IMG/VR virus record: IMGVR_UViG_3300032327_000258
Span: 1 to 39,076 of that record
DNA from: a virus
Taxonomy: Duplodnaviria; Caudoviricetes
Strand: one strand, 5' to 3'
DNA length: 39,076 nucleotides
The first letter of the stretch is position 1. Each line of letters begins with the position of its first letter. The notes beneath the pieces were generated by a model. That model saw only the letters and a list, made by a program, of their open reading frames with translations, was not told the DNA's origin and searched no databases. A program made the position numbers and the translations under genes. Below, piece after piece: positions 5,388-36,337 of this stretch.

Positions 5388-8300
5388 ATGGCCCTTCTTA
5401 TTTTACAAAAAGATTCGACTGGTGTTGCTCCAGCAAGCGCGTTGTCGTCTGTCGCGCCAAACGCTGAATCACAAAATGTTTCTGCATTATCTACGGTTAA
5501 TTCAGGTTTACCGTCAAATCTGACAACTGACAATACCAATTCAACAGTATCTGATTCGTCAGCTCTAAGTCCGTTGACTTCCGCGCAAGTTACTAACCCT
5601 GTAACTCAACAAACCAGTGCGCTGCCTGCCGCGACTCAGCAAGCGACGACGGCTAACAACGTTGCTAGTGACTCTCATTATGGTGATCCAAAATTTGGTT
5701 TTTTTGAACAAGACACAAACCAATGGATTCCGTATAGTGATGCTGAAATAGCAAATAAAGCGAATGCAACAACTTCAAATGTTAATAACACCTCGTCAAA
5801 CAACAACATTATTGATAGATATGTAAATCCTATTGTTGACACAATCACAACCGGTCTAAAGGAAAATTTAAAAACAGCAGATCCTTTGGTTTTTCCAACA
5901 GGTGTTGTCTCATCTATTCCAAATTTATCCGGAACAACATTTTTTAATACAGATCGAAGCAATAAACTTGGAACCGCTTGGGATTTTGGAGCAATTTTCC
6001 CAAAAGGGGATGAATTTACTGTTGACGCTACAAAACTTCCGCCCGGAAAAACCATAGAACAAGCAAGAGAAGCGGCAAGGGCGTATAAAAACAAAGACTA
6101 TGAAACATTAAGAAGTTTAAGTCAGACCGAAAGTGGTCCAATTACTTCCGTTCCAAGAAGCCTGTATTCTGTATCTTCAGACCCAAGGATACAGTTAGAG
6201 AGTAGTTGGGACTTTAATTCAATATTTGCAGATCCAAAAAATCCGAATCTATCAGCGTTGCCGCGTGGAAAGACCCTGTATGACGCAATGCAGGCGAAGC
6301 AGGCTTACGACACAGGGAATTTTGAGGGTTTACAAAAACTAAGTTATTCTCCATCCACAAATATTGCGATGGAATTATCGGGAACAACAAGCGTTCCTAC
6401 GGAAGGATTCAACCAAGTCACAAAAATTATTTCTGAAGGCTTGGCGGCCAACGGACTTACGAGTGTAAACGACCTAAAATACGAAAAAATACCAAAATAT
6501 CAAAATGAACAATTACAATATATTGCAAGAACTTCAGTTTACGAAGACGGAACAACTGTTGCTCCGGGGTACTATTTTCAAGGCAAAAAATTATTTGAGC
6601 TTAATGATCCGAAAATAGAAGAACTTAAAGCAAAAGGACAGTGGCAAGAAGGATTAATTGATGAACCTGACGGTACTTATCATCAAGTTACAACTCCGGT
6701 GCCAACAGGTGGTTACGATGAGTATTGGTATAACCAAGCAACAGGACAAAGAATAAACGACCCACGCAGAGTTGCCATGATTGGCAACGGCAGTATGGGG
6801 GTTAGTGGAGGTGATGTATTTTTTGAACTTGGCACAACTCCTGAAGGTCAAATAACCTTCAATCCGTGGTTTAGCAAAAGACAAAGCTGGGCCGACAATG
6901 ATTTTGGTCAAATTGCAAATTTTGGTCTTAAATTTACTCCGTTTGCTCCTGTTGCATATGCAATTGATGCCTATCAAGCATATAAGAACGATAATCCGTT
7001 AGGAGTTGCGATTGCCATTGCTGGTGGCGTTGGGGAACTTGCTGGTTCTAATTTATTTTTACCAGATGAAGTTGGGTCTGATTGGGCGACCTCTGGTGCT
7101 GGAACCGCTGCTGCTACCACCCCAACAGATGTTCTTGCTGGGCAGGTGGCAACAGCAGCAAACATTGCCAGACCAGCGCTGATGGCTGTTGATGCAGCAT
7201 TGAATAACAAATGGGGTACTGCGTTGTCATTGGCCGGGAATTTGGCTGGTGCTGGTAGTACGCCCATTGGAAATACAGGGTTTACCTACGGCGATGCAAG
7301 CAAGTTTGTGTCTATTGGTGCCAACATTGCAAATGGAAAATTTGGTGATGCTGCAATTACAGCGGCTCCATATTTAAATAGCCCAAATTTAGAGCTTGCT
7401 GGACGTGCTAGTAACTTAATCCAAGCAATTAACACGTATGAAACAACAGGAAATTTTACCCCTCTTTTAGAAGCTGGGAATGCGTTTAGAAAAACCGCAT
7501 CAAACGTCCTTAATGCAAAATCGGCTACTACTGGTGGGACAACAACCCCAGTCACTGGTGGTTCAACGGATACCGTTAAAGGCGGCGCTGGGAATGACAC
7601 GATCATCCAGACAGATGCTGGTGACGCCGGAGCAGACGAAATCCTGACGGCTTCCCAAGGGGTTGGCAACGTAAGTGGTGAAGGAACTCAGGTTGCTGGG
7701 GCGGATACCGGAACCAAAACAGACGAAACCAAATACCAAAAGTTGCCTAGGCGACCGTCAGAGATGACGGATGAAGAACTAGATGAATACGTTATTGGAA
7801 AAAATCCAGAGACTGGTGAGTATCTTTATCTAGGTGTTCATTCTGATGAAGATCGTCAAGATCTCTTTGATGAGTTTTATAAGAGACTTGGGGTAGATAG
7901 AAATTCTTCTTCAGGAGGAGATGGGTCTGTAACTGGAGCCGGTACCACAACTGGGCCACAAATAACTTCATTGGTTAGTTTGGCTGGAACCGCTAATGCA
8001 AACGAAAATTTAAGAAGAGTTTTAGTTGAAAATGGCGGTGATCTTGCATATTTAGGAGCCCAGCCTCCTAGCGCCCCCGGAACGAGCCCAACGGAAGATA
8101 CATTTGCATGGAAAAAAACTATACAGCCGGTCATAGGTGGGCCAGACCAATATGAGTTAACTGACTCAACTGGCAAGGTTCTTTCATTATTTGTAGAGGT
8201 TCTTCCGCCAAGAATAGAGTCAGAAGACTCGGATGATTATTTTGTTGACGAGAACGGCAATAGGCATTATTACCTTAAGTTTAATATTTCGTCTCCTGAC

Positions 8301-10346
8301 AACCCAAACAAAAAAATTCAAGTCACCTCCGAGCAAGCAAAAGAATTTCTTCCGTTCAGTCTTGTAGACACACTAACAAAAACTACTTCTGAAAGCCAAA
8401 CAACCAATCCTTCAGCAACTACCGACCCGACAAAAACCGATCAAACCCAAATTGATCAAACAAAAACACCAGAGCAGATTGCCAGAGAAACAAGAGCTAA
8501 CAACAGCAGCAAGGTTGCAACCCGTGCCAGTGAGTTGATCAATGGCGGATCAAGTGTTAGTTCGGCTTTGTCGCAGGCTGCATCTGAGAGTGGATTGACC
8601 GCTGCAGACTACGATCCTCCTTCTTGGGCTTCTTCTTCTAGTGCTTCTGACAGCAATGCGTCAAGCGATGCTGCTGCATCAGGCAGCGGTGCAGCAAGTG
8701 ATTCAGCGTCCCAAGTGGAGTCTGATGCCTCTAAGTTTATTGCTTCGGGTTCTTCTCCTTCGGATGCTTGGTCGCAGGCTCTAGCCAAGAACGGCCTCAA
8801 AGAATCTGATTTGACTCGGCCAAACTGGGCTGTTCCCGGTGGCGGCTTAGACGTAGCAAATCCAATTGGAGAAGAAATTCTGGGTTTTCCCAACCCAGAA
8901 TTTCCAATCCCGCCCGGAAAAACCGGGACCGGTGGGTTATTGGGTTCCATTGGAACGTCTGGGGTCGTTGGTACGTCTGGTTCATCGGGCGCGTCTGGAT
9001 CAAGCGGGTCGTCTGGGGGTAGCGGAACTTCGGGTACAACAGGAACCACCGGCACTACTGGAACTACCGGAACCACAGGCACTACGGGTACAACGGGCGC
9101 GATCGGAACAACCGGAACAACCGGAACAACCGGAACGACCGGAACGACTGGCACGACTGGCACGACTGGTACAACCGGAACGACTGGCACGACTGGCACG
9201 ACTGGAACTACCGGCACTACGGGTACAACTGGCACAACCGGAACTACCGGAACTACCGGAACTACCGGAACTACCGGAACTACCGGAACTACCGGAACCA
9301 CAGGCACGACTGGCACGACTGGCGCGATTGGAACAACCGGCACGACCGGCACAACCGGGTCAACCAGCACAGGAACTGGCACAGGTACCGGAACAGGAAC
9401 CGGAACTGGGACTGGGACTGGAACTGGAACCGGAACAGGAACCGGAACAGGTACGGGTACTGGCACGGGTACTGGTACTGGAACCGGGACTGGTACCGGA
9501 ACTGGTACCGGAACTGGTACTGGAACGGGAACTGGCACCGGAACAGGTACTGGAACAGGTACTGGAACCGGGACTGGGACGGGAACAGGAACTGGTACAG
9601 GCACCGGAACTGGAACGGGAACAGGAACTGGAACCGGAACTGGTATTGACCTTATAGATTTGAAAGATAAGCCGTCAAGACCTTCTGGACCTTCCGGGAC
9701 TTTGGCATCAGGCGAAAGCGCATCAACCCCGATCGTTGACGCAAATTTACCTCTGCGTAAAGTTGGAGATCTGGGAAAATACGTTAGTCCGTTGGTTGCA
9801 TATCAAATGGCCGTCCAAGAGATGTACAACAAGTCTATGGATGAAAAGGCTCGTCAGGAACAGCCAAAGGGAAAGAACTTGGAAACCGATACATCTTTCT
9901 GGAGTTATGGACAAGAGAAGCCTCTTGAATCAATCTTTGGTGCGTTTGACAAATTCTTTGGCTCTGAAGAACCCAAAGAAATCAAAGCTGCTACTGGGGG
10001 TTCAATTGCTGCGCTCTTGGCGGCTGGCGGCGCATCAAGAACTGGTCGAGGGAGTACCACTCTTGTGCCTCATTCGGGTAAGATGCGAGTTGACTTCCGG
10101 CGTGGCGATGCTGTAACGGGTCCGGGGGATGGGCAATCGGACGACATTCCTGCCATGCTTGCGGACGGGGAGTTTGTGTTCCCAGCGGACGTTGTGTCTG
10201 CTTTGGGTAACGGATCAACAAAAGCCGGATCGGACAAGTTGTACGAAATGATGCATTCAATTCGAGCACGGGCACGGAAGGCACATCCAAAGTCTTTGCC
10301 TCCGCCGGCTAAGTCACCTCTTGAGTATCTGCGGGGTAAAAAATGA
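5388..10346 (+). CDS. Large putative internal virion/ejection protein with (GTT)n and (GT)n repeats
   Basis: 1652 aa ORF; C-terminal '[28 protein letters not shown]' domain seen in phage virion proteins; follows tail genes. Confidence 0.75.
9033..9645 (+). repeat. In-frame tandem repeats: ~36 x 9 bp (GGN ACN ACN) then ~45 x 6 bp (GGN ACN)
   Basis: Directly visible, e.g. ggaactacc runs near 9240-9295 and ggaacaggaacc units; counts estimated from span. Confidence 0.95.
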
Positions 10347-24539: not shown

Positions 24540-26000
24540 ATGAAAGTGGGAAATGCCCCTAAAAGTGGGGGTAAATTGCCCCCCGACGTGGTTGAGATCC
24601 TCAAGGATCCGGAGACCAAGCGGCAATTCCTGACCCTGAAGCCCGAGCAGCAGGTTGCTTGGGCGTGGCGCATGAGGTGGCTTCAGCAGGCGCACAAGCA
24701 TCAGATAGCCCCGGCTGGAGACTGGTACTCGGTTTGGTTGCTTCTGGCGGGGAGGGGAGCGGGGAAGACCCGTACAGCGGCGGAGCAGATCTCTTGGCTG
24801 GCGTGGACCAACCCCGGTACCCGATCGCTTGTAGCGGCTCCTACGTCGAGTGATGTGCGCTCGACTTGCTTCGAGGGGGACAGTGGGCTGATGAGCGTGA
24901 TACCGCAGGCGCTGATCGCGGACTACAACAAAGCCCTGCATGAGATCCGCCTGACTAACGGAAGCCTGATCAAGGGGATTCCCGCTAGTGAGCCTGAGCG
25001 CTTCCGAGGTCCACAGTTCCATTTTGCTTGGGCAGATGAACTTGCGGCTTGGGAATACCTGCAAGAGGCGTGGGATCAGATCCAGTTCGGTTTGCGGCTA
25101 GGTCAGCGCACAATCATGATCTGCACTACTACGCCGAGGCCCAAGGACCTGATCATTGATCTGATCGGCCGGGACGGTGACGACGTTGCTGTGACTACGG
25201 CATCGACGTATACCAACCTCGACAATTTGTCCGCGAACTTCAGGAAGCAGATCCTGCAGTACGAAGGGACGACGCTAGGCCGGCAGGAGATCTACGCAGA
25301 GATCATCGACCCCGAGGAGGGCGGGATCGTCAAGCGGGAGATGTTCAAGTTGTGGCCGGCCGGCAAGGAATTCCCGAAGTTTGAGTACATCATCCAGAGT
25401 TATGACTGCGCGAACACAGACAAGACCGCGAACGATCCGACTGCCTGTATCACGTTCGGCGTGTTCAAGCCGTTAGATGGCCCGATGGCCGCGATGGTGA
25501 TCGACTGTTGGCAGGACCGGCTGCAGTACCCGGACCTACGCCCGAAGGTCATCGAGGAGTACGAGGCAGTATTCGGCGAGGGGAAGGAGAAGAAGCGCGT
25601 GGACCTGATCCTCGTGGAGGACAAGAGCGCGGGGATAAGCCTGATACAAGATCTTCAACGGGCGCACCTTCCGGTTCGGGCGTACAACCCCGGCAACGCG
25701 GACAAGACACAGCGGTTGAACATCGTGTCCAACATCATCGCCAGAGGGCGGGTATGGATACCGGAGAGCAGCCAGAGAAAGGGATACGTCCGGGACTGGG
25801 CAGAGGGATTTGTATCGCAGATCTGCAGCTTCCCTGAGTCAACGCATGATGATTTCGTTGACGCCTGTACGCAAGCTCTGCGCTTCCTGCGGGATAGTGG
25901 ATGGTTGGATATTGACCCGCCGCCTGACGATGACTGGGACGAGGATGACTATGTGGACAGTGGCCGATCGCGTCGGAGGGAGAATCCGTATGCGCAATAA
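24540..26000 (+). CDS. terL: Terminase large subunit
   Basis: Walker A 'AGRGAGKT', Walker B 'WADE', 'TTTPRP', RNase H-like 'QSYD', 'VEDKSAG', 'HDDFVDA'; true start may be slightly downstream. Confidence 0.96.
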   Translation: MKVGNAPKSGGKLPPDVVEILKDPETKRQFLTLKPEQQVAWAWRMRWLQQAHKHQIAPAGDWYSVWLLLAGRGAGKTRTAAEQISWLAWTNPGTRSLVAAPTSSDVRSTCFEGDSGLMSVIPQALIADYNKALHEIRLTNGSLIKGIPASEPERFRGPQFHFAWADELAAWEYLQEAWDQIQFGLRLGQRTIMICTTTPRPKDLIIDLIGRDGDDVAVTTASTYTNLDNLSANFRKQILQYEGTTLGRQEIYAEIIDPEEGGIVKREMFKLWPAGKEFPKFEYIIQSYDCANTDKTANDPTACITFGVFKPLDGPMAAMVIDCWQDRLQYPDLRPKVIEEYEAVFGEGKEKKRVDLILVEDKSAGISLIQDLQRAHLPVRAYNPGNADKTQRLNIVSNIIARGRVWIPESSQRKGYVRDWAEGFVSQICSFPESTHDDFVDACTQALRFLRDSGWLDIDPPPDDDWDEDDYVDSGRSRRRENPYAQ

Positions 26001-27804: not shown

Positions 27805-28467
27805 ATGAGGAAGATTGCGATCTTGGTTCCTTCTTATGATGGGAAGGTTGCTTGTGGATTTTCGATGGCGATGGCGGAGATCTTCAGGTTTGCCGGGCAG
27901 ATGGAGGGGATTGAGATCTTCCTGCGGTACTGGATGTACGACTCGTTGATTCAGGTGGTGAGGAACCGGTTGATCTGCAATGCGCTGGATGACGGGATGG
28001 ACGAGGTGGTGTTCATCGACGCGGATCAGGAGTTTACGGCGGAGACGTTCTTTAGGGTGATCAGCCATAACGTGGATGTGGTGGGCGTGCCGGTGAGGAT
28101 GAAGACTGAGGAGGAGCGGTACAACATACGGCCGGAGAGCATGGAGGAGCACCGCTGGGATCCGAAGTTGAAGTTGCTGGATGTGAGGGCGATCGGGACT
28201 GGGTTCTTGCGTGTGACGCGGCCGGTGATGGAGGCTGTGGCCAAGGCGAGCATGGAGTACAACGACGGCGACAAAATGCGCCGGATGATCTTTGAGATCC
28301 GGACGCTGGATGGGTGGATCCAGTCGGAGGACTTAGTGTTCTGCCACAAGATCAGGGATGCCGGGTACACGATCTACGCGGACATTGAGGAGACTTGCAA
28401 GCACTTTGGTACGAAGTGTTGGAGCGGAGACTTCAAGGGGTATTTCAAGGATCGGTTCTTAGCGTGA
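27805..28467 (+). CDS. GT-A fold (family 2-like) glycosyltransferase
   Basis: 'ILVPSYDG', 'RN', DxD 'FIDAD', 'GTGFL', 'SED..FC', 'CKHFG'. Confidence 0.82.
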   Translation: MRKIAILVPSYDGKVACGFSMAMAEIFRFAGQMEGIEIFLRYWMYDSLIQVVRNRLICNALDDGMDEVVFIDADQEFTAETFFRVISHNVDVVGVPVRMKTEEERYNIRPESMEEHRWDPKLKLLDVRAIGTGFLRVTRPVMEAVAKASMEYNDGDKMRRMIFEIRTLDGWIQSEDLVFCHKIRDAGYTIYADIEETCKHFGTKCWSGDFKGYFKDRFLA

Positions 28468-28516
28468 CTTGACAGCCTAGGCGCGATATGATGGCGGATC
28501 TACGCAAGAGGCGGCT

Positions 28517-31500
28517 ATGGATCAACGCAAGCAGATTGTTCGGGGATTGTTGGATGAATTCCTGACGGCAATCAGGCAGCCGGACAAGACCTCGATTGTG
28601 CCGGCACCCAATCGTTGGTTTGCCAAGCCTGAAGACTTCCCCCATCAGCAGCCAATGATTGAGAGGGCGCTGGCCGCCAACAATATGACGCGCAGTGATT
28701 TCCCTCATGGCGCATATTTAGATCCGCGAACTGGCCAAGACTTAACGGGCCGGATGATGCAAGACGTTGGCGCGGTCATTGATCCGAACACCGGTCGTCC
28801 GGTTATGTCTGGGCGTGAGTCCGGGCTGGAGAGTTTTGCTGAACTTGAAAAGAAGTTGGGCAACCAGACGTTGTCCAACCTTGTGCGGCGTTCCAAATTC
28901 AAGCCGCTCGGCGGTGATCCGCTGCTCAACGACATTCCTTTTATCACGACGGTTGAGTCGGGGCCGCACTTTTATGGCCTTGGGATGGAGTATGCGAGCC
29001 CTACGCAGTTGTTTCAAATTCAGCGCGGGGACAACCCTCACCTGCGGCCAAAGAGCCGTGGCGACGTGTTTGGGATGGGCGAGGTAGTTGGCCGGATGCA
29101 GATCGGCAAGGGACCTGAGCATGACGTGTACGAGAAGTTGTTCGTGGCCCCTCGTGGTTCTGACGTACCCGGCAAGAAGTTGAGCAAGGCAGAAGGCGGA
29201 GAGGTTCAGATGGGCTCCAATAAAAAAATGCCAAACGATGAAGCGGCATTTAAAAATTGGATTCGCGGCACGGATTGGTTTAAAGAGTTTAAGGCTGAGT
29301 ACAATGAGGAACCAGACTTAGACACTAAAGACTATGATTACAGGGCTGCGTGGAAAGCTGGCGTGCAACCTGAGCGCGACCCATATGACAACAATCGTTT
29401 TCACTGGCCTTCTTCCCTGCCAACGGGGGAAATGCTTAAATCGGCAGATCATCCTACGGCGTGGAAAGAATACTTTATGCGAGAAACAGGTGTAAACCCT
29501 GATGCTTTAGGATTAAAAACACCAGAAGACGCAAACATTTTTATAGAAAACATTTCTAAAGGGCAAGAGAAAGCCGCTGGCGGCGAGGTCCACATGGCTG
29601 ACGGTGGCGACCCGATGCTGGCGGACCTGATCGAGCGGTACAACACCCCTCGAAACAAGAGTCGGTACAGCGCTGGCATCTTTGACAGCAACGCGCCGGG
29701 TGAGGTTAGGTCTGTGACCCCAACGGTGAAAGAGCGCATGGCCAGCGGTCTGCAGGCCGCTATGGAGTCCGCAGGATCAGATCGATACAAGGCTAGGCAG
29801 CGAGCCCAAACGATCCTTGGCGGCCCTAACAGCAGGCTTCCCGGCGGGTTTGGCGTTGCGGACATTGGCGCAATGGTCAACCCTGTCGTAGCGGCTGGGA
29901 TGATCCCGTTGTACGGCGAGGCCGCCATGCACGATCTGGCTGGCGTACCTGATGCGATCAAACGCGGGGACTACGTTGGCGCTGGCGTAGACACGGCGTT
30001 TGGGTTGGCTGATGTAATTCCTGCGGTTGGCCAAGGGAAGCGAGTAGCCAAGGGACTTGCCAAGGGCATCAAGGATGCGGCAACCAGCGATGCTGGGTAC
30101 AACTTAGCGCAGAATGTGTTGAAGGCCACAGGGACTGCCCCCGCACAAATCATGATGGGTGAGAACTCCAAGACGTGGAACCATGGCAACGCTGCTTTAG
30201 CAAAGCATATGGAACTCCAAGGGGCAGACCCACTCGATATTTGGCAAGCAACCGGAACCTTCCGGGGCGCTGATGGCAAGTTGCGTCAGGAGATTCCTGA
30301 CTTTGCGATGGAATACAACCCTAAGCCTGCAAGAAAACGCCAAACCGATAAATATGAAAAGAGCCGGGATAGGTCAATGGCGGCAGCGACAACCCCTGAA
30401 GAACAACAGAACGTAAGGGATTATTACAAAAAAGAATTGCAGGACATTATATACAATGTCAAAGGAAAGACATCTGAGTTTATTGATCATCCTGAACTTA
30501 GGGCTGCGTATCCTGAATTGTTTGATCGGCCATTCAAACAGCTAGACCCAACCAATCCAGAATACACCGCGGCTGAAAACACTTCTGGTTTTTTCCAGCC
30601 AACAACAAAAACAATTGTTGTAAACGGCGATTTTCCAGAACACACCAAGCGAGACACGGTGTTGCATGAACTGCAACACGCCGTTCAGCAATTGGAGGGC
30701 TGGCAGGGCGGTTCTAGTCCGGCGCTGATGGCAATGCACATGGCGGACAGAGATGCGTTGAAGTACGCTGCTGAAAAGGAAAATGAATTATTAACCCTTT
30801 TGGCTCCAAAGGCAAAGATTCGTCCGTTGACAGAACAATCTTTGAAAGACATTGAAGGCAAACTTGAAAAGTATAAACAACTTGAAGGTATAGATGACCC
30901 TTTCAAGGCATATGAGCGTGCTGCTGGCGAAGAAGAAGCCAGAGCGGTTGAACGTAGAAGCCGTTTGTCTGATGAAGAATTGAAAGAGTGGCATCCTTCG
31001 GAAAACTACGATACTCCGTTCTCTGAGCACATTACCGACTTTGCCACTGGCGGTGCGGTGATGATGGCCGGCGGGAAGGACGTTACCAAAGAAGCAATTA
31101 AGCAAGGCGTCAAGAAAGGGATAGATGCAGTTGGAAATTTTTTAAACTCAATCAATCCGAACGACGCCATTGCAAGAGAAGCCGCTCGTTTGCAAACGGT
31201 AGCCAATCCAATCAAAGCGTCTGAAGCCCTAAGTCCTTACGAAGGGGCCTACCTTAAACTTGTGCCGTATGATCGGATGAAAGTTGATTTGTCTGGCAAA
31301 GAACGAGGTGGCCCAAACTTTTCAGGCATTCAGTTGGTTGACCCGCTGTATGCAAACGCGGTGTCTGGGGTTACAGATAAAAAAACCGCAACACGGCTAA
31401 TAAATAAAAATCAAAACGTCCCCGAAGGCGCTTCTGTCATATGGACCCCTTCTGTTGGGTCGCCAATTCAACACAGATCAAATGCAACAATGTTTAATAA

Positions 31501-33070
31501 GTTTGCAGATGAGTTTGATTTGGCAAAGTCTGGTATCGCGCCTGAATTAATAGAGGAAATGAACAAAGCCGCAAGCACCGCAGTTGACAAAAAGAAAAGA
31601 TTAATTTTTCCACAAGGCATGGACTTTAACGCTCAAAATTACAGAAAAATTCCACAAACGTATGATCAGCGCAGGTTAGTTGCGGATATTTTTTCCGGAA
31701 AGGGGGTTGGGGGAAAAAGAGGACAGACAGTTGCTAACTATGATCAATTAATTTTAGACAATACAGACCCTTTGTTTGTTGATGTTCCGAATGGTAGCAT
31801 TGGGCCGCGTTTGTTTACTTTAGACAACAAATTTGAAATACGCCCAGATTTGCACAGTGATTATCCATTTGTTTTAACCGGAAAAGATCTTGGGGTAACA
31901 TATACTCCAATTCCAAGAGAACCTGTGTTTACAGATTTTGCAGAAGCAGTTCAAGCAATTAAAGAAAGGCCTGTTACTGCAATGGATTTTGATAGGGGAG
32001 ATCCAACTCAATTAATTCACAGAGAATTAATTAACAGAATGAGAGATGAGGGTCACGCCGAAGGTGGCGAAGTCCATATGGACAAAGGCGGTGCGGCAAA
32101 AGACGCGGTAAAAGCAGCGGTCAAAGATGCAGCCGAAGCCCTGCGTGGTTACATTGACCCGATTTCCAACCGCATTTCGGATTGGAACTGGCGGCCAATG
32201 TCGGATGTGCGCCAAGACGTGCCGTTGACTGAGATCCCGGAGTACATTCAGGGCGGATTTGGCAACTTCATGGCAGAGCAGGCCAAGCGTGCTGCCGAAG
32301 GTAACTTAAACGCACGGGATCTGATCAAGGCGTACACCATCACCCGGTCAAGCGTAAACCGTGGCGGATTGCCGTATAACACTGCAACCAAGACCGGGAT
32401 GAAGTTGCCGCGCACCACAGAAAAACTTGTGCGCCCAGAGGGGGCGTTTGCGGAGTGGCTTGGATCAAAAGCAGGCCAACGGTATCTAGACGATGCTGTG
32501 CTTGGCAAATTTGACGAGAAAGACCTCGAAGATATGGTTACCCGGTTTGGTCCGTTTGGGATGCCTGCGGTGTTGGCTGATGACATGAGGTACGCGGCAA
32601 GGACTTTGTCGCCAAAAGGGGCGACCATTTCTGCTGATGTGACTGCACCTGCTGATGTATACCGGGACACTTCGCAGCAAATTAGAGGTATTGGACCGGC
32701 CAAAAGCGGGTTCATGGCTTCGTTGCTTGGCCGTGGAGATTTTCCAACTTTTGACGCTAGACAAATCAACCTTCACACGGGGGAAGGTGGAAAGCAAGCC
32801 AAAAAATATCTTGCTCGTGGTTACGGCGAAGGCGGAGAAGAGGCGGTTGCTCGATTGGCCGATCGTCAGCGTGCAATGAATATGTCGATTGATCCTGCGT
32901 TGGCCCCGTTCTATCAGCACCTTACCCATCACACTGTGTGGGACGCATTAGACAACAGCCAAGTAACGCACAATGACCTTATGAAAGCTATGCGCGGGTA
33001 TGCGGATGGCGGTGAAGTTGATTCAGACGGCGTTACACTTGACGACTTCTTGAGCAAACAAGGTTACTAA
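28517..33070 (+). CDS. Large polyvalent protein: five modules incl. LPD23-like + zincin metallopeptidase and HhH-GPD-like domain
   Basis: 1517 aa; 'IWQATGTFRGADGKLRQEI', 'LHELQHAVQ..EG', 'AGEEEAR', 'IRGIGPAK...PTFD'; repeated AxGGxV linkers. Confidence 0.8.
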   Translation: MDQRKQIVRGLLDEFLTAIRQPDKTSIVPAPNRWFAKPEDFPHQQPMIERALAANNMTRSDFPHGAYLDPRTGQDLTGRMMQDVGAVIDPNTGRPVMSGRESGLESFAELEKKLGNQTLSNLVRRSKFKPLGGDPLLNDIPFITTVESGPHFYGLGMEYASPTQLFQIQRGDNPHLRPKSRGDVFGMGEVVGRMQIGKGPEHDVYEKLFVAPRGSDVPGKKLSKAEGGEVQMGSNKKMPNDEAAFKNWIRGTDWFKEFKAEYNEEPDLDTKDYDYRAAWKAGVQPERDPYDNNRFHWPSSLPTGEMLKSADHPTAWKEYFMRETGVNPDALGLKTPEDANIFIENISKGQEKAAGGEVHMADGGDPMLADLIERYNTPRNKSRYSAGIFDSNAPGEVRSVTPTVKERMASGLQAAMESAGSDRYKARQRAQTILGGPNSRLPGGFGVADIGAMVNPVVAAGMIPLYGEAAMHDLAGVPDAIKRGDYVGAGVDTAFGLADVIPAVGQGKRVAKGLAKGIKDAATSDAGYNLAQNVLKATGTAPAQIMMGENSKTWNHGNAALAKHMELQGADPLDIWQATGTFRGADGKLRQEIPDFAMEYNPKPARKRQTDKYEKSRDRSMAAATTPEEQQNVRDYYKKELQDIIYNVKGKTSEFIDHPELRAAYPELFDRPFKQLDPTNPEYTAAENTSGFFQPTTKTIVVNGDFPEHTKRDTVLHELQHAVQQLEGWQGGSSPALMAMHMADRDALKYAAEKENELLTLLAPKAKIRPLTEQSLKDIEGKLEKYKQLEGIDDPFKAYERAAGEEEARAVERRSRLSDEELKEWHPSENYDTPFSEHITDFATGGAVMMAGGKDVTKEAIKQGVKKGIDAVGNFLNSINPNDAIAREAARLQTVANPIKASEALSPYEGAYLKLVPYDRMKVDLSGKERGGPNFSGIQLVDPLYANAVSGVTDKKTATRLINKNQNVPEGASVIWTPSVGSPIQHRSNATMFNKFADEFDLAKSGIAPELIEEMNKAASTAVDKKKRLIFPQGMDFNAQNYRKIPQTYDQRRLVADIFSGKGVGGKRGQTVANYDQLILDNTDPLFVDVPNGSIGPRLFTLDNKFEIRPDLHSDYPFVLTGKDLGVTYTPIPREPVFTDFAEAVQAIKERPVTAMDFDRGDPTQLIHRELINRMRDEGHAEGGEVHMDKGGAAKDAVKAAVKDAAEALRGYIDPISNRISDWNWRPMSDVRQDVPLTEIPEYIQGGFGNFMAEQAKRAAEGNLNARDLIKAYTITRSSVNRGGLPYNTATKTGMKLPRTTEKLVRPEGAFAEWLGSKAGQRYLDDAVLGKFDEKDLEDMVTRFGPFGMPAVLADDMRYAARTLSPKGATISADVTAPADVYRDTSQQIRGIGPAKSGFMASLLGRGDFPTFDARQINLHTGEGGKQAKKYLARGYGEGGEEAVARLADRQRAMNMSIDPALAPFYQHLTHHTVWDALDNSQVTHNDLMKAMRGYADGGEVDSDGVTLDDFLSKQGY

Positions 33071-35622
33071 TGGCTACCGAGTTCCCGATTGATCCAGAGT
33101 ACAGCCGTTTTGTTGACGGTCAACCCGATGATGTTAAACAGCCAGAACCGGAACTGAACCTTGATGGTTCCAACATTGAGGAGTTGCCGGATGGGTCTGC
33201 GATCGTTCACATGGAGATTGAGGGTCCGCTAGACAACGAGGACTTCTACCAGAACCTTGCGGATGACGCGAGTTTTGATTTCATTGAACTTGATGGAATT
33301 GCTCTGCGATATATCGAGTATGCGGAGAAGGACAAAGAAGCCCGGAAAGAGCGTGACAAGCAGTACGAGGAAGGAATTCGGCGCACTGGATTGGGCAATG
33401 ACGCACCCGGCGGGGCTAACTTTAACGGAGCGAGCAAAGTAGTTCACCCGGCGATGGCTGAAGCCTGTGTGGATTTTGCTGCTCGTGCCATCAAAGAGAT
33501 GTTTCCGCCTGATGGCCCAACCAAGACCAAAATTCTCGGTGATGTTGACGACGACAAGGTCAAGCAGGCAGAGCGCAAAGTCGAGTTCATGAACTGGCAG
33601 TTGACGGAGCAGATTGAAGAGTTCCGCGACGAAGAGGAGCAGATGCTCACTCAGTTGCCGTTAGGTGGCAGCCAGTACCTGAAGCTCTGGTACGACGAAA
33701 AGAAGAAGCGCCCGTGCGCTGAGTTCTTGCCAATTGACAACGTCCTGATCCCGTTTGCGGCAGGAAATTTCTATACGGCTCAACGAGTTACCGAAGTTCA
33801 CGACCTATCGGACTACGAATTCAAGAATCGGGTGCGGTCTGGGCTGTACCGCGACGTAGATTTTGTCAAAACGAGCATTGAGCCTGAGCAAACGGGGCCT
33901 CAGAAGGCCACGGACAAGATTGAAGGCAAGCGATCGGGCGACAACGAGGATGGGATTCGTCGGGTTTATCACGTCTACACTTGGTTGGAGTTAGATGACG
34001 ACCCGTACACCAAGGGGGAGATGGCTCCGTACATCCTGATGATTGACGATCAGAACACGGAAGTGATCGGGTTGTACCGCAACTGGGAGGAAGGCGATGA
34101 AACAATGGCCAAACTTGACTGGATTGCTGAGTTTAAGTTTATACCTTGGCGAGGTGCTTATGCTGTTGGTCTTCCTCATCTTATTGGGGGGCTTTCTGCT
34201 GCTCTCACCGGTTCTCTTCGGGCTCTTCTAGACACCGCGCACATCAATAATGCGGCAACAATGCTCAAACTGAAGGGGGCAAAAGTCTCCGGTCAGTCTC
34301 AGCAGGTTGAAATCACTCAGGTTAATGAGATTGAGGCCGCTCCGGGGGTGGACGACATCCGCAAACTTGCGATGCCGATGCCGTTTAACCCCCCAAGCAC
34401 AGTTCTGTTTGAGTTGCTGCAGTGGCTGACCGCTCAAGCCAAGGGGGTGATCACTACCGCGGAAGAAAAGATTGCGGATGTGAACTCCAATATGCCTGTT
34501 GGGACAACACAGGCGCTGATTGAGCAGGGCGCGGTTGTTTTCTCGTCCATTCACGCCCGTTTGCACCAGTCGCAGGGCAAGGTTCTCAACATTCTGAGCC
34601 GAATCAACCGCTGGTACCTCGATGACATGAGGAGGGGCGAGGTTGTTGAGGATTTAGAGATTGCTCGTGAGGATTTTGCTCGTTTGACGGACGTTGTGCC
34701 GGTTTCTGACCCGCATATCTTCTCGGAAACGCAGCGGATGGCCCAGACCCAAGCGGTTATGGCCATCATGGACAAGAATCCGGACCTTTTCAACCGTAAA
34801 GCGGTGATTTCGCGGTTCTTGAAGCAAATTAAGGTGCCGGGAATCAATGAGTTGTTGATTGATGAGCCAGCGCCGGAGAAGGCGGACGCGGTAAACGAGA
34901 ACGTGTCAATGTCTATCGGTCAGGCGGCGTTCGCGTACCCTGAGCAAGACCACTTAGCGCACATTCAGGTGCATTTGGACTACGCCAAGGATCCAGCGCT
35001 GGGAAGCAACCCTATGCTTGCTGGTGGTTACCTGCCCAAGGCTATGGAACACATCAAGCAGCACATTGTGTTGTGGTATCTGAACCGGATGAACGGGTAC
35101 GCCACGCAGGCGCTAGGCAAAGAGGTCAGGAACTACGAGATCGAGAAAGATCCGAAGATGATTGACAAGTTGTTTGCTGCTGCGTCTAAGCACATCACGC
35201 TTGATACGCAAGAAACGCTTGGCGGGATTGTGCCGGTAATCCAGCAAATGATGAAGACGATGGAGCAATTCAAACCTAAGCCTCCGATGGATGGTGCTGA
35301 CCAAGTGTTGATGCAGACCTCGATGGCCGAGACTCAGCGCCGGTCGCAGCGTGATCAGGCTGAGATTCAAATTCAGCAGCAGAAAGCTCAGGTGGACGCG
35401 CAAGAGAAGATGGCACGGATGCAGATGGATCACCAGATTGCAACGGAAGATCTACAATTGCGGCTTGCGATTGCGACGGGTGATAATGAAACCAAAGAGC
35501 GTATTGAAACTGCTCGATTGACTAGGGATGCGGCGCGTTTAAGTCATGATCAGCAGAAGACGGCTTTGGAATTTGCGAAGGGCGGTTTGGTTCAACAAGG
35601 AGATCAGTATGGGTACGAGTGA
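33070..35622 (+). CDS. Portal protein
   Basis: 850 aa; 'GASKVVHP..AEACVDF', 'FMNWQLTE', 'LPLGGS...K', 'PVGTTQALIEQG'; Q-rich barrel-like C-terminus; precedes head genes. Confidence 0.9.
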   Translation: MATEFPIDPEYSRFVDGQPDDVKQPEPELNLDGSNIEELPDGSAIVHMEIEGPLDNEDFYQNLADDASFDFIELDGIALRYIEYAEKDKEARKERDKQYEEGIRRTGLGNDAPGGANFNGASKVVHPAMAEACVDFAARAIKEMFPPDGPTKTKILGDVDDDKVKQAERKVEFMNWQLTEQIEEFRDEEEQMLTQLPLGGSQYLKLWYDEKKKRPCAEFLPIDNVLIPFAAGNFYTAQRVTEVHDLSDYEFKNRVRSGLYRDVDFVKTSIEPEQTGPQKATDKIEGKRSGDNEDGIRRVYHVYTWLELDDDPYTKGEMAPYILMIDDQNTEVIGLYRNWEEGDETMAKLDWIAEFKFIPWRGAYAVGLPHLIGGLSAALTGSLRALLDTAHINNAATMLKLKGAKVSGQSQQVEITQVNEIEAAPGVDDIRKLAMPMPFNPPSTVLFELLQWLTAQAKGVITTAEEKIADVNSNMPVGTTQALIEQGAVVFSSIHARLHQSQGKVLNILSRINRWYLDDMRRGEVVEDLEIAREDFARLTDVVPVSDPHIFSETQRMAQTQAVMAIMDKNPDLFNRKAVISRFLKQIKVPGINELLIDEPAPEKADAVNENVSMSIGQAAFAYPEQDHLAHIQVHLDYAKDPALGSNPMLAGGYLPKAMEHIKQHIVLWYLNRMNGYATQALGKEVRNYEIEKDPKMIDKLFAAASKHITLDTQETLGGIVPVIQQMMKTMEQFKPKPPMDGADQVLMQTSMAETQRRSQRDQAEIQIQQQKAQVDAQEKMARMQMDHQIATEDLQLRLAIATGDNETKERIETARLTRDAARLSHDQQKTALEFAKGGLVQQGDQYGYE

Positions 35623-35737: not shown

Positions 35738-35913
35738 AGACATTAGGCGACCTGATTGGCGGAATCAAAAGTAGACAGCTAGAAATAGCTGCGTCCCTAG
35801 CCGCAGGAAATGCGGTGAATTGGGACGCTTATGTCCGCATGACGGGTCATCACGCGGGGCTGCAAGAGGCCCTAGATATCCTCAACTCCTTAATGGAAGA
35901 AAAAGATGACTAA
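35734..35913 (+). CDS. Small head-module protein (59 aa; not in ORF track)
   Basis: GTG start overlapping previous stop; 'L..GNA.NWD.Y..M.G...GL' pattern typical of the gene between portal and GroES. Confidence 0.7.
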   Translation: MKTLGDLIGGIKSRQLEIAASLAAGNAVNWDAYVRMTGHHAGLQEALDILNSLMEEKDD

Positions 35914-36337
35914 CCAAGAGGCGCTGAAAGAAAGCGCTGAGTTAGCTTGGGCGTTTCCAAGCGTAGATCCCGGAGCCAAGCCACTTGGCGGCCGGATTCT
36001 TGTGCAACTACGTCGGACTAAGAAGAAGACTTCTGGTTCCGGCATTATTTTGGTTGAAGAGACCAAAGAGACTGAGAAGTGGCAGAACATGGTGGCCAAG
36101 GTCATTCATGTTGGACCGCTGGCGTTTAAGCACCGCGATTCAATGCAGTCATGGCCGGAAGGCTCGTGGTGTGAGCCCGGCGACTTCATCCGCGTTCCTA
36201 AGTGGGGTGGCGATCGTTGGGAAGTTGATGTGCCGGGTCAGCCTGACGAGGATCCTGCATTGTTTGCCGTTTTCAACGATCACGAGATGATTGCGAAAGT
36301 TACGGGTGACCCCTTGACCATGAGGGCGTACCTATGA
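35906..36337 (+). CDS. groES: GroES-like co-chaperonin
   Basis: 'KPLGGRILV', mobile loop 'TSGSGIIL', 'VIHVGP', 'GDFI', 'NDHEMIAKV'. Confidence 0.85.
   Translation: MTNQEALKESAELAWAFPSVDPGAKPLGGRILVQLRRTKKKTSGSGIILVEETKETEKWQNMVAKVIHVGPLAFKHRDSMQSWPEGSWCEPGDFIRVPKWGGDRWEVDVPGQPDEDPALFAVFNDHEMIAKVTGDPLTMRAYL

Follow-up and report, generated by a model that had tools for sequence, protein, structure and literature searches.

A modular phage polyprotein with a conserved AxGG peptide at its module boundaries, possibly cut in the virion

The linear virus contig IMGVR_UViG_3300032327_000258 (Caudoviricetes; about 70% complete) is considered here at its full length of 39,076 nucleotides (nt), called the window below. 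Between its genes for the terminase large subunit (24540..26000) and the portal protein (33070..35622) lies an open reading frame (ORF), 28517..33070, encoding a protein of 1517 amino acids (aa). The ORF with its modules and motifs, its two neighbours just named, and the GE module described below are on the plus strand. The terminase gene is the upstream anchor of a slot whose content varies among relatives; the stop codon of the ORF overlaps the portal start (TAATG); and the genes that come after encode GroES, a scaffold-like protein, and the capsid protein. The protein consists of five unrelated modules, each followed by a short peptide of the form [K/M/Y/F]-[A/K]-x-G-G-x-[V/A/I]. Comparison with related phages shows that modules are often exchanged at this peptide.

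Pfam finds LPD23 (aa 548-599, 30158-30313; E 8e-11, above cut-off) and a zincin in the third module, and the product is therefore classed, on its domain content, among polyvalent proteins as PMC5512222 uses the term. The earlier note on this DNA had supposed as much. The single chain joins unrelated domains: LPD23, the zincin, and a predicted HhH-GPD fold. Two further features of the class are present: characteristic domains (LPD23 here; ART-PolyVal in family F1 of the relatives) and a location among virion genes.

Five matches to A.GG.V occur in the protein, at residues 225, 353, 843, 1181, and 1496, with Ala codons at 29189, 29573, 31043, 32057, and 33002. They are motif 1, KAEGGEV (29186..29206); motif 2, a doublet, KAAGGEV-H-MADGGDP (29570..29614); motif 3, FATGGAV, followed by MMAGG (31040..31060); motif 4, again a doublet, HAEGGEV-H-MDKGGAA (32054..32098); and motif 5, YADGGEV, with an acidic carboxyl-terminal tail of the TLDDFL type (32999..33067). 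The second members of the doublets, MADGGDP and MDKGGAA, are weaker copies eight residues past motifs 2 and 4. Among 20,000 residue shuffles of the protein, 18,796 contained no match, 1,169 contained one, 35 contained two, and none contained three or more. Four of the five linkers have Met two residues past the Val. The segments so delimited are 224, 128, 490, 338, and 315 aa long, followed by a 22-aa tail, and pairwise BLASTP among them found no similarity (lowest E 0.13), the top matches being the motifs themselves.

These observations agree with the earlier note, which had placed all five motifs correctly and had described both the mutual dissimilarity of the modules and the Met in four linkers. 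Its further claim, that base composition switches at the linkers, holds in part. The G+C fraction of segments 1 to 5 is 0.56, 0.44, 0.52, 0.43, and 0.54 (at third codon positions, GC3: 0.66, 0.41, 0.54, 0.35, and 0.54), so modules 2 and 4 are indeed AT-rich; a further switch falls inside module 3, where there is no motif, from GC3 of about 0.65 (residues 341-540) to about 0.35-0.4 (residues 600-700). Overlapping contigs from one public run, which may be that of the source sample, bridge motifs 2, 3, 4, and 5; at motif 1 the overlap is only 28 letters on one side, and no listed piece covers the full ORF.

Module 1 (224 aa, 28517..29188) has no family or PDB match. Its homologue is also amino-terminal in L082-L084, followed by the motif, and is the last internal module in L085 and L086, preceded by it (L-numbers denote relative loci compared with the window). 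Module 2 (128 aa, 29189..29572) and module 4 (338 aa, 31043..32056) are likewise unassigned; for all three, Pfam, PHROG, NCBIfam, PADLOC, and PDB sequences gave no match, and Atlas matches to module 4 are all under 0.9. Module 3 (490 aa, 29573..31042) comprises a variable amino-terminal part, LPD23, and an HExxH zincin (HELQH, 30665-30679; DUF6782, aa 687-735).

Module 5 (315 aa, 32057..33001) has a predicted HhH-GPD fold. The predicted domain, at about 32192-32971, folds on its own with high confidence (predicted local distance difference test, pLDDT, 95.7) and stops before motif 5. Its model aligns with the Ogg-type HhH-GPD protein 3n0u at Z 17.5 (root-mean-square deviation 2.7 over 203 residues; runner-up Z 10.7), and Foldseek matches it to Ogg-type glycosylases with probability 1.00 and E 0.02. 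Language-model features place it as DUF7178-like. Across 80 homologues K202 (codon 32702) and D219 (codon 32753) are invariant; these are the presumed counterparts of the catalytic Lys and the Asp that follow the hairpin in Ogg. Module 5 is thus predicted to have the fold of an Ogg-type 8-oxoguanine DNA glycosylase. The known Ogg-type (Ogg2) enzymes Tm1821 (3n0u) and MjOgg (3knt) share this fold and, presumably, the Lys and Asp after the helix-hairpin-helix; in contrast to them, module 5 is embedded in a phage polyprotein, is only 12-14% identical, and has 8-oxoguanine as a putative substrate. The earlier note proposed structure prediction for each module, and the one module folded, module 5, is a self-contained domain that crosses no motif. 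Its suggestion of anti-host effectors fares less well: of the modules, three lack any functional assignment, and the one for which a function is predicted has a DNA-glycosylase fold. A cargo with this fold suggests that the virions of some phages include an enzyme of their own for repairing DNA or removing bases.

Relatives were found by a portal search of IMG/VR, which gave 479 stretches; the best 80 of the 479 were taken, and the 75 with upstream sequence were used together with the window. Their slots encode 103 proteins of at least 230 aa, of which nine accessory enzymes were dropped and 94 proteins kept. Cutting these proteins at motif clusters yielded 233 modules. They fall into 58 families, whose neighbours vary widely, and 43 architectures (some near-duplicate) were counted among the 54 loci with a complete slot. 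Named families include ART-PolyVal, LPD23, PcfJ, DUF7178, ASCH, GDSL, RadC/JAB, and ParB; most of the 73 modules searched against Pfam had no match.

Ends of homology gather at the motif. At the protein level, the ends near a motif number 44 of 83 at 75% identity or more (14.3 expected), 146 of 294 at 50-75% (44.9 expected), and 165 of 400 at 35-50% (62.2 expected), an excess of about threefold in every identity band. At the DNA level, 17 genes of the closest relatives yielded 22 internal block ends (at least 85% identity): ten lie at most 45 nt from a motif, where 1.5 were expected, four more lie within 70 nt, and eight lie at least 190 nt away. Individual cases are instructive. In L004, module 2 is 95.6% identical and stands between other neighbours; the DNA match, 96.8% over exactly 29189-29589, starts at the Ala codon in motif 1 and ends within motif 2. 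The L082 match halts at 29208, in motif 1, and restarts at 29570, in motif 2. L003 has a module 3 that is 90% identical, and L077 has homologues of modules 4 and 5 in reverse order. Contigs of other public runs have joints at 29197, 29589/31049, and 31113/31124, the last with 1615 extra letters.

The prediction of the earlier note, that modules would vary in number and order with breakpoints at the motif, is borne out by these architectures and DNA ends. From the alignments, modules have evidently been gained, lost, and reordered within the slot, often with breakpoints in the motif. The motif is the main swap point and not the sole one, because many block ends cluster there and eight of 22 are far away; a second lies in module 3 near residue 550, where homology breaks near aa 545-553 and no motif occurs. 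In Caulobacter phage RW, a cultured relative with a portal 47% identical (L088:41888-46196), only tRNA-Val stands between terminase and portal, and the cargo slot is therefore dispensable in the group. Module 2 was also surveyed independently of the portal, in 50 of 65 loci, which gave 43 distinct contexts. Among its homologues are 33 short stand-alone genes, of which one has the motif and another a variant of it, and eight long fusions, four with the motif beside the module and three without any motif. Several stand-alone homologues that lack the Gly-Gly motif (L183, L188, L189, L200, and L206) have NALA/NSLA repeats at their amino termini, possibly a different targeting tag.

A matrix for the motif was built from the 94 slot proteins. 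It finds 273 sites in them, compared with one to five in each of five shuffles; since it was built on the same proteins, this count shows consistency, not independence. A survey of 2876 ORFs from the loci compared, by protein family, places the motif in slot families (24/24, 16/16, 12/12, 9/9, and 4/6), in all 30 members of a Gly/Lys-rich family encoded after the capsid gene (174 matches, about six copies each), and in several small proteins of that region. It occurs in five of 63 scaffold-like proteins and 10 of 91 portals, the latter being the closest relatives only; the window's own portal ends in such a copy, FAKGGLV (35572-35592). Residual matches are found in three of 73 tail proteins and three of 81 ejection-like proteins. 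Among the same ORFs the motif is absent from terminase large (0/66) and small (0/42) subunits, capsid (0/42), GroES (0/60), exonuclease (0/55), and helicase (0/27). This distribution would suit proteins that reside inside the head.

Within proteins, the motif followed by a tail of 8-39 residues stands at 51 of 79 distinct carboxyl termini, and a motif stands at 14 of 70 amino termini. Two or more copies occupy 58 of 119 internal joints, doublets being most often eight residues apart (20 of 43), and 41 of the 119 have Met two positions past the Val. The TLDDFL-type tail recurs at 11 of the 79 carboxyl termini (0.4% of random windows). Short amphipathic [IL][DE][DE]F[LI] segments are seen at the start of module 1 (28517-28580) as well as in the carboxyl-terminal tail (33020-33067), and a leader like that at 28517-28580 also precedes unrelated modules in L001, L010, and L082. 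Another possible tag, xAL[S/A], is present in 25 of 79 carboxyl-terminal tails (2.8% of random windows); it partly overlaps the motif and has no family-wide enrichment. The Gly/Lys-rich family, also rich in Met and of low complexity (L025:18125-19192, L091:29844-31193, and 28 others), would lie just past the right end of the window by gene order and has no PHROG match; it is a candidate core or scaffold protein from which cutting would release small peptides, or else a multivalent binder.

The explanation that we favour, at somewhat better than even, is a virion-packaged polyprotein that is cut just before A-x-G-G, freeing its modules. Judging by gene position and by the restriction of the motif to likely head-interior proteins, the chained precursor would be built into the procapsid. 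A trans-acting protease would then cut every motif, during maturation or ejection, to give products of about 25, 15, 54, 37, 34, and 2 kDa. The freed modules would enter the cell with the DNA, and there protect the DNA or act on the host; module 5 is a predicted DNA glycosylase/lyase, and the relatives' modules include ADP-ribosyltransferase, PcfJ, ASCH, RadC/JAB, GDSL, and ParB. Ordinary short-homology recombination would swap modules between relatives at the motif peptide, and motif joins would survive because both domains stay whole and separable. The cutting step draws on phage T5, in which residues 1124-1133 of the tape measure protein pb2 read FVPR-AEGGMM and a cut was mapped after R1127 by mass spectrometry (PMC10038345).

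No virion proteomics for this phage group was found in the literature, and several points weigh against cutting. No protease family was detected by Pfam or PHROG in the window or in 48 representative conserved proteins; the capsid protein weakly matches a protease-capsid fusion family, the match covering the capsid part, and a PDB search with the 192-aa gene that precedes the capsid gene gave no match. Module 3's own zincin was rejected as a general cutter because only eight of 54 complete slots have HExxH. The conserved GE module, described below, and a host enzyme are candidates. Carboxyl-terminal motifs and multi-copy joints are needless for freeing modules, and three long proteins bear module 2 without any motif. 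T5 pb2 agrees with the motif only in the x|A-E-G-G core, and its site scores -6.7 with the matrix. Cutting after Gly-Gly, as ubiquitin proteases and double-glycine-leader processing do, is not favoured, because the sole mapped cut precedes A-E-G-G and no such peptidase was found. PMC5512222 describes one polyvalent protein, the N4 virion RNA polymerase, as packaged uncut. For phage JBD30 a cut has been proposed at R1066, past the GE module, from prediction only (PMC11445458).

The earlier note cast the motif DNA as a recombination handle, and one could extend this to an integron-like cassette array in which a dedicated recombinase acts on the motif DNA and the peptide is a by-product. Breakpoints do fall inside motif DNA at nucleotide resolution, and in 211 distinct DNA instances the first Gly codon is GGY 202 times (background 70%), a bias that may instead reflect avoidance of an internal GGAGG. 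However, Ala, the second Gly, and Val each use all four codons; the eight distant DNA breakpoints lie well away from any motif; the motif occurs also in non-modular head proteins; and no integrase or recombinase was seen among the 22 window proteins scanned, from a record that is about 70% complete. Integron-type arrays would be expected to have a frame-independent conserved DNA site, which this motif is not. The handle proposal therefore does not survive, and we regard a recombinase site as very improbable. Because synonymous codons vary freely, the constraint acts mainly on the peptide. The motif DNA probably serves only as short homology, and swapping would combine this with selection for intact, separable domains.

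If the peptide is what matters, it might be bound rather than cut. As an uncut docking tag, it would be a short strand with affinity for a component of the head (the portal, the inner surface of the capsid, or the GE module), and any protein bearing it would be loaded. Extra copies would raise avidity, and joints would carry the motif since fused genes brought their own terminal tags. Much of the distribution suits this proposal: the copies at carboxyl and amino termini, the tandem copies with their eight-residue spacing, the roughly six copies in each Gly/Lys-rich protein, and the Met after the Val, which resembles a relic start codon. So does the company that motif and GE module keep in GenBank relatives (below), both being present in some and both missing from others. 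Yet most stand-alone module 2 homologues lack the motif (though they are perhaps not packaged), one tag per chain would be enough while almost all joints keep one, and the one natural event mapped to an AxGG core is cleavage. A docking tag is possible, if on the unlikely side. Alternatively, the motif could be structural punctuation, neither cut nor specifically bound: a flexible hinge that lets domains unfold and refold independently as they pass the portal and tail. It is Gly-rich and lies between folded domains of proteins that are likely ejected, and tape measure proteins, which pass through the tail, retain it too. But unrelated families would not need to fix A/K at +1, G-G at +3/+4, and V/A/I at +6 for a hinge, nor would a hinge need copies at the very carboxyl terminus, which makes this quite improbable. 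Cutting and tagging are compatible: a terminal tail could target the protein and the motif release its modules.

A broader form of the cutting proposal involves the GE module. In the window this tape-measure-type module (10071..10322) ends a 1652-aa ORF, 5388-10346, and degenerate AxGG copies lie ahead of it. The ORF stands before ejection-like genes and contains long GTT/GT repeats with a collagen-like match. The 84-residue module, which has invariant Asp/Glu, is 76-100% identical in the best 150 of 14,546 representatives (E 0.001), whose host proteins range from fewer than 300 to more than 3000 aa, some of them fragments. It matches tape measure families, including those of Douge and JBD30, and there starts with YAGGG or FASGG; the same profile search did not find T5 pb2, though it found the Douge and JBD30 proteins. 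A profile search of genome contigs gave three loci only. The AlphaFold2 model is poor (pLDDT 58; predicted template modelling score 0.28), and a fold search with it gave no match. Six of eight GenBank relatives (50 kb each) have the GE module, four of these with matrix-level motifs in other proteins; in the 50 kb each of CRP-902 and QDWS535 neither was seen. Cultured carriers of the motif include HTVC023P, Pag-Yong1, and DSL-LC04, whose slot protein WJZ48068 has three copies at its amino terminus; in Caulobacter phage RW it is in the GE protein only. In HTVC103P, the acidic 431-aa gp79 (L245:42570-43865) ends in a GE module with MATGG-type motifs upstream; it lies between portal and capsid genes, a position often held by head assembly proteins. 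Homologues of the module in L174 and L175 are on contigs binned as Burkholderiaceae and Limnohabitans metagenome-assembled genomes, a weak hint of betaproteobacterial hosts for the group, as the binning may be wrong.

The GE module is a candidate reader of the motif. In phage lambda gpH, FATGG (733) and YATGG (778) fall within the region where the protein is cut; gpH loses about 14 kDa, with site and catalyst unknown according to PMC12617516. Tailed phages might then have in AxGG a common code for virion maturation: cut a single time in the tape measures of T5 and lambda, it would serve here as general cargo punctuation, with the GE module as its reader or protease. We consider this unlikely. 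The T5 link is one analogous site and no proof of homology, because of the low matrix score and the failure of the GE profile to find pb2. If the link holds, it bears on where and by what gpH is cut. If the code itself is real, it names the missing catalyst for gpH and pb2, puts the lambda cut next to F733, and offers a seven-residue handle for loading proteins into, and releasing them from, the phage head; the group that turned AxGG into cargo punctuation would be abundant freshwater phages.

The immediate surroundings of the ORF deserve brief mention. Directly ahead of it is a variable glycosyltransferase-like or sugar-metabolism gene (27805-28467; in the same place in L005-L010, the closest relatives). 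Upstream of the polyprotein start, a stretch of 60-70 nt (28464-28531) shows 87-96% conservation between two variable flanks; it is likely a promoter or ribosome-binding region as well as a further swap point. Between portal and scaffold-like gene, the GroES-like co-chaperonin (35906-36337) is kept across the group, including its cultured relatives.

Together, these results describe a peptide seam that defines exchange points in phages of wide occurrence (479 stretches of IMG/VR bear the portal), among which the zincin is optional. It predicts exact cut sites and offers a way to split uncharacterised giant proteins into real units (58 families, mostly unnamed). In the literature searched, which included few subscription papers and neither the supplement of PMC5512222 nor that of PMC10038345 (fig. 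S5G), no description of this motif was found.

Short motifs that direct the maturation of head proteins are familiar from T4, with its gp21 protease and capsid targeting sequence. As in T4-like and giant phages, where a short motif common to portal, core, and ejection proteins directs processing within the head, the motif here is largely restricted to likely head proteins, apart from the few tail and ejection-protein homologues noted above. In those phages, amino-terminal propeptides are removed and the protease is known (SPN3US gp245, for example, cuts head proteins after AXE; PMC10052503), whereas here the Gly-Gly motif is internal and carboxyl-terminal and no prohead protease was found in the window or among the 48 representative proteins. 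T5 pb2 is cut directly before A-E-G-G, the core common to the motif here (PMC10038345); pb2 and lambda gpH are, however, tail-lumen proteins of long-tailed phages, each cut once, whereas the present chain is portal-linked and has five sites, with many more in other head proteins. The phage-type polyvalent proteins of Iyer et al. 2017 (PMC5512222) likewise combine unrelated domains, among them LPD23, zincin, ART-PolyVal, and PcfJ, in a gene among virion genes. For these, packaging and proteolytic release were proposed, with the resident zincin as cutter; the main text of that paper contains neither "linker" nor "glycosylase", whereas here a conserved inter-module peptide marks the swaps and the zincin is dispensable. 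Polyvalent cargo and motif-directed maturation are each known already; what is new is a seam that unites the two and governs how modules are exchanged.

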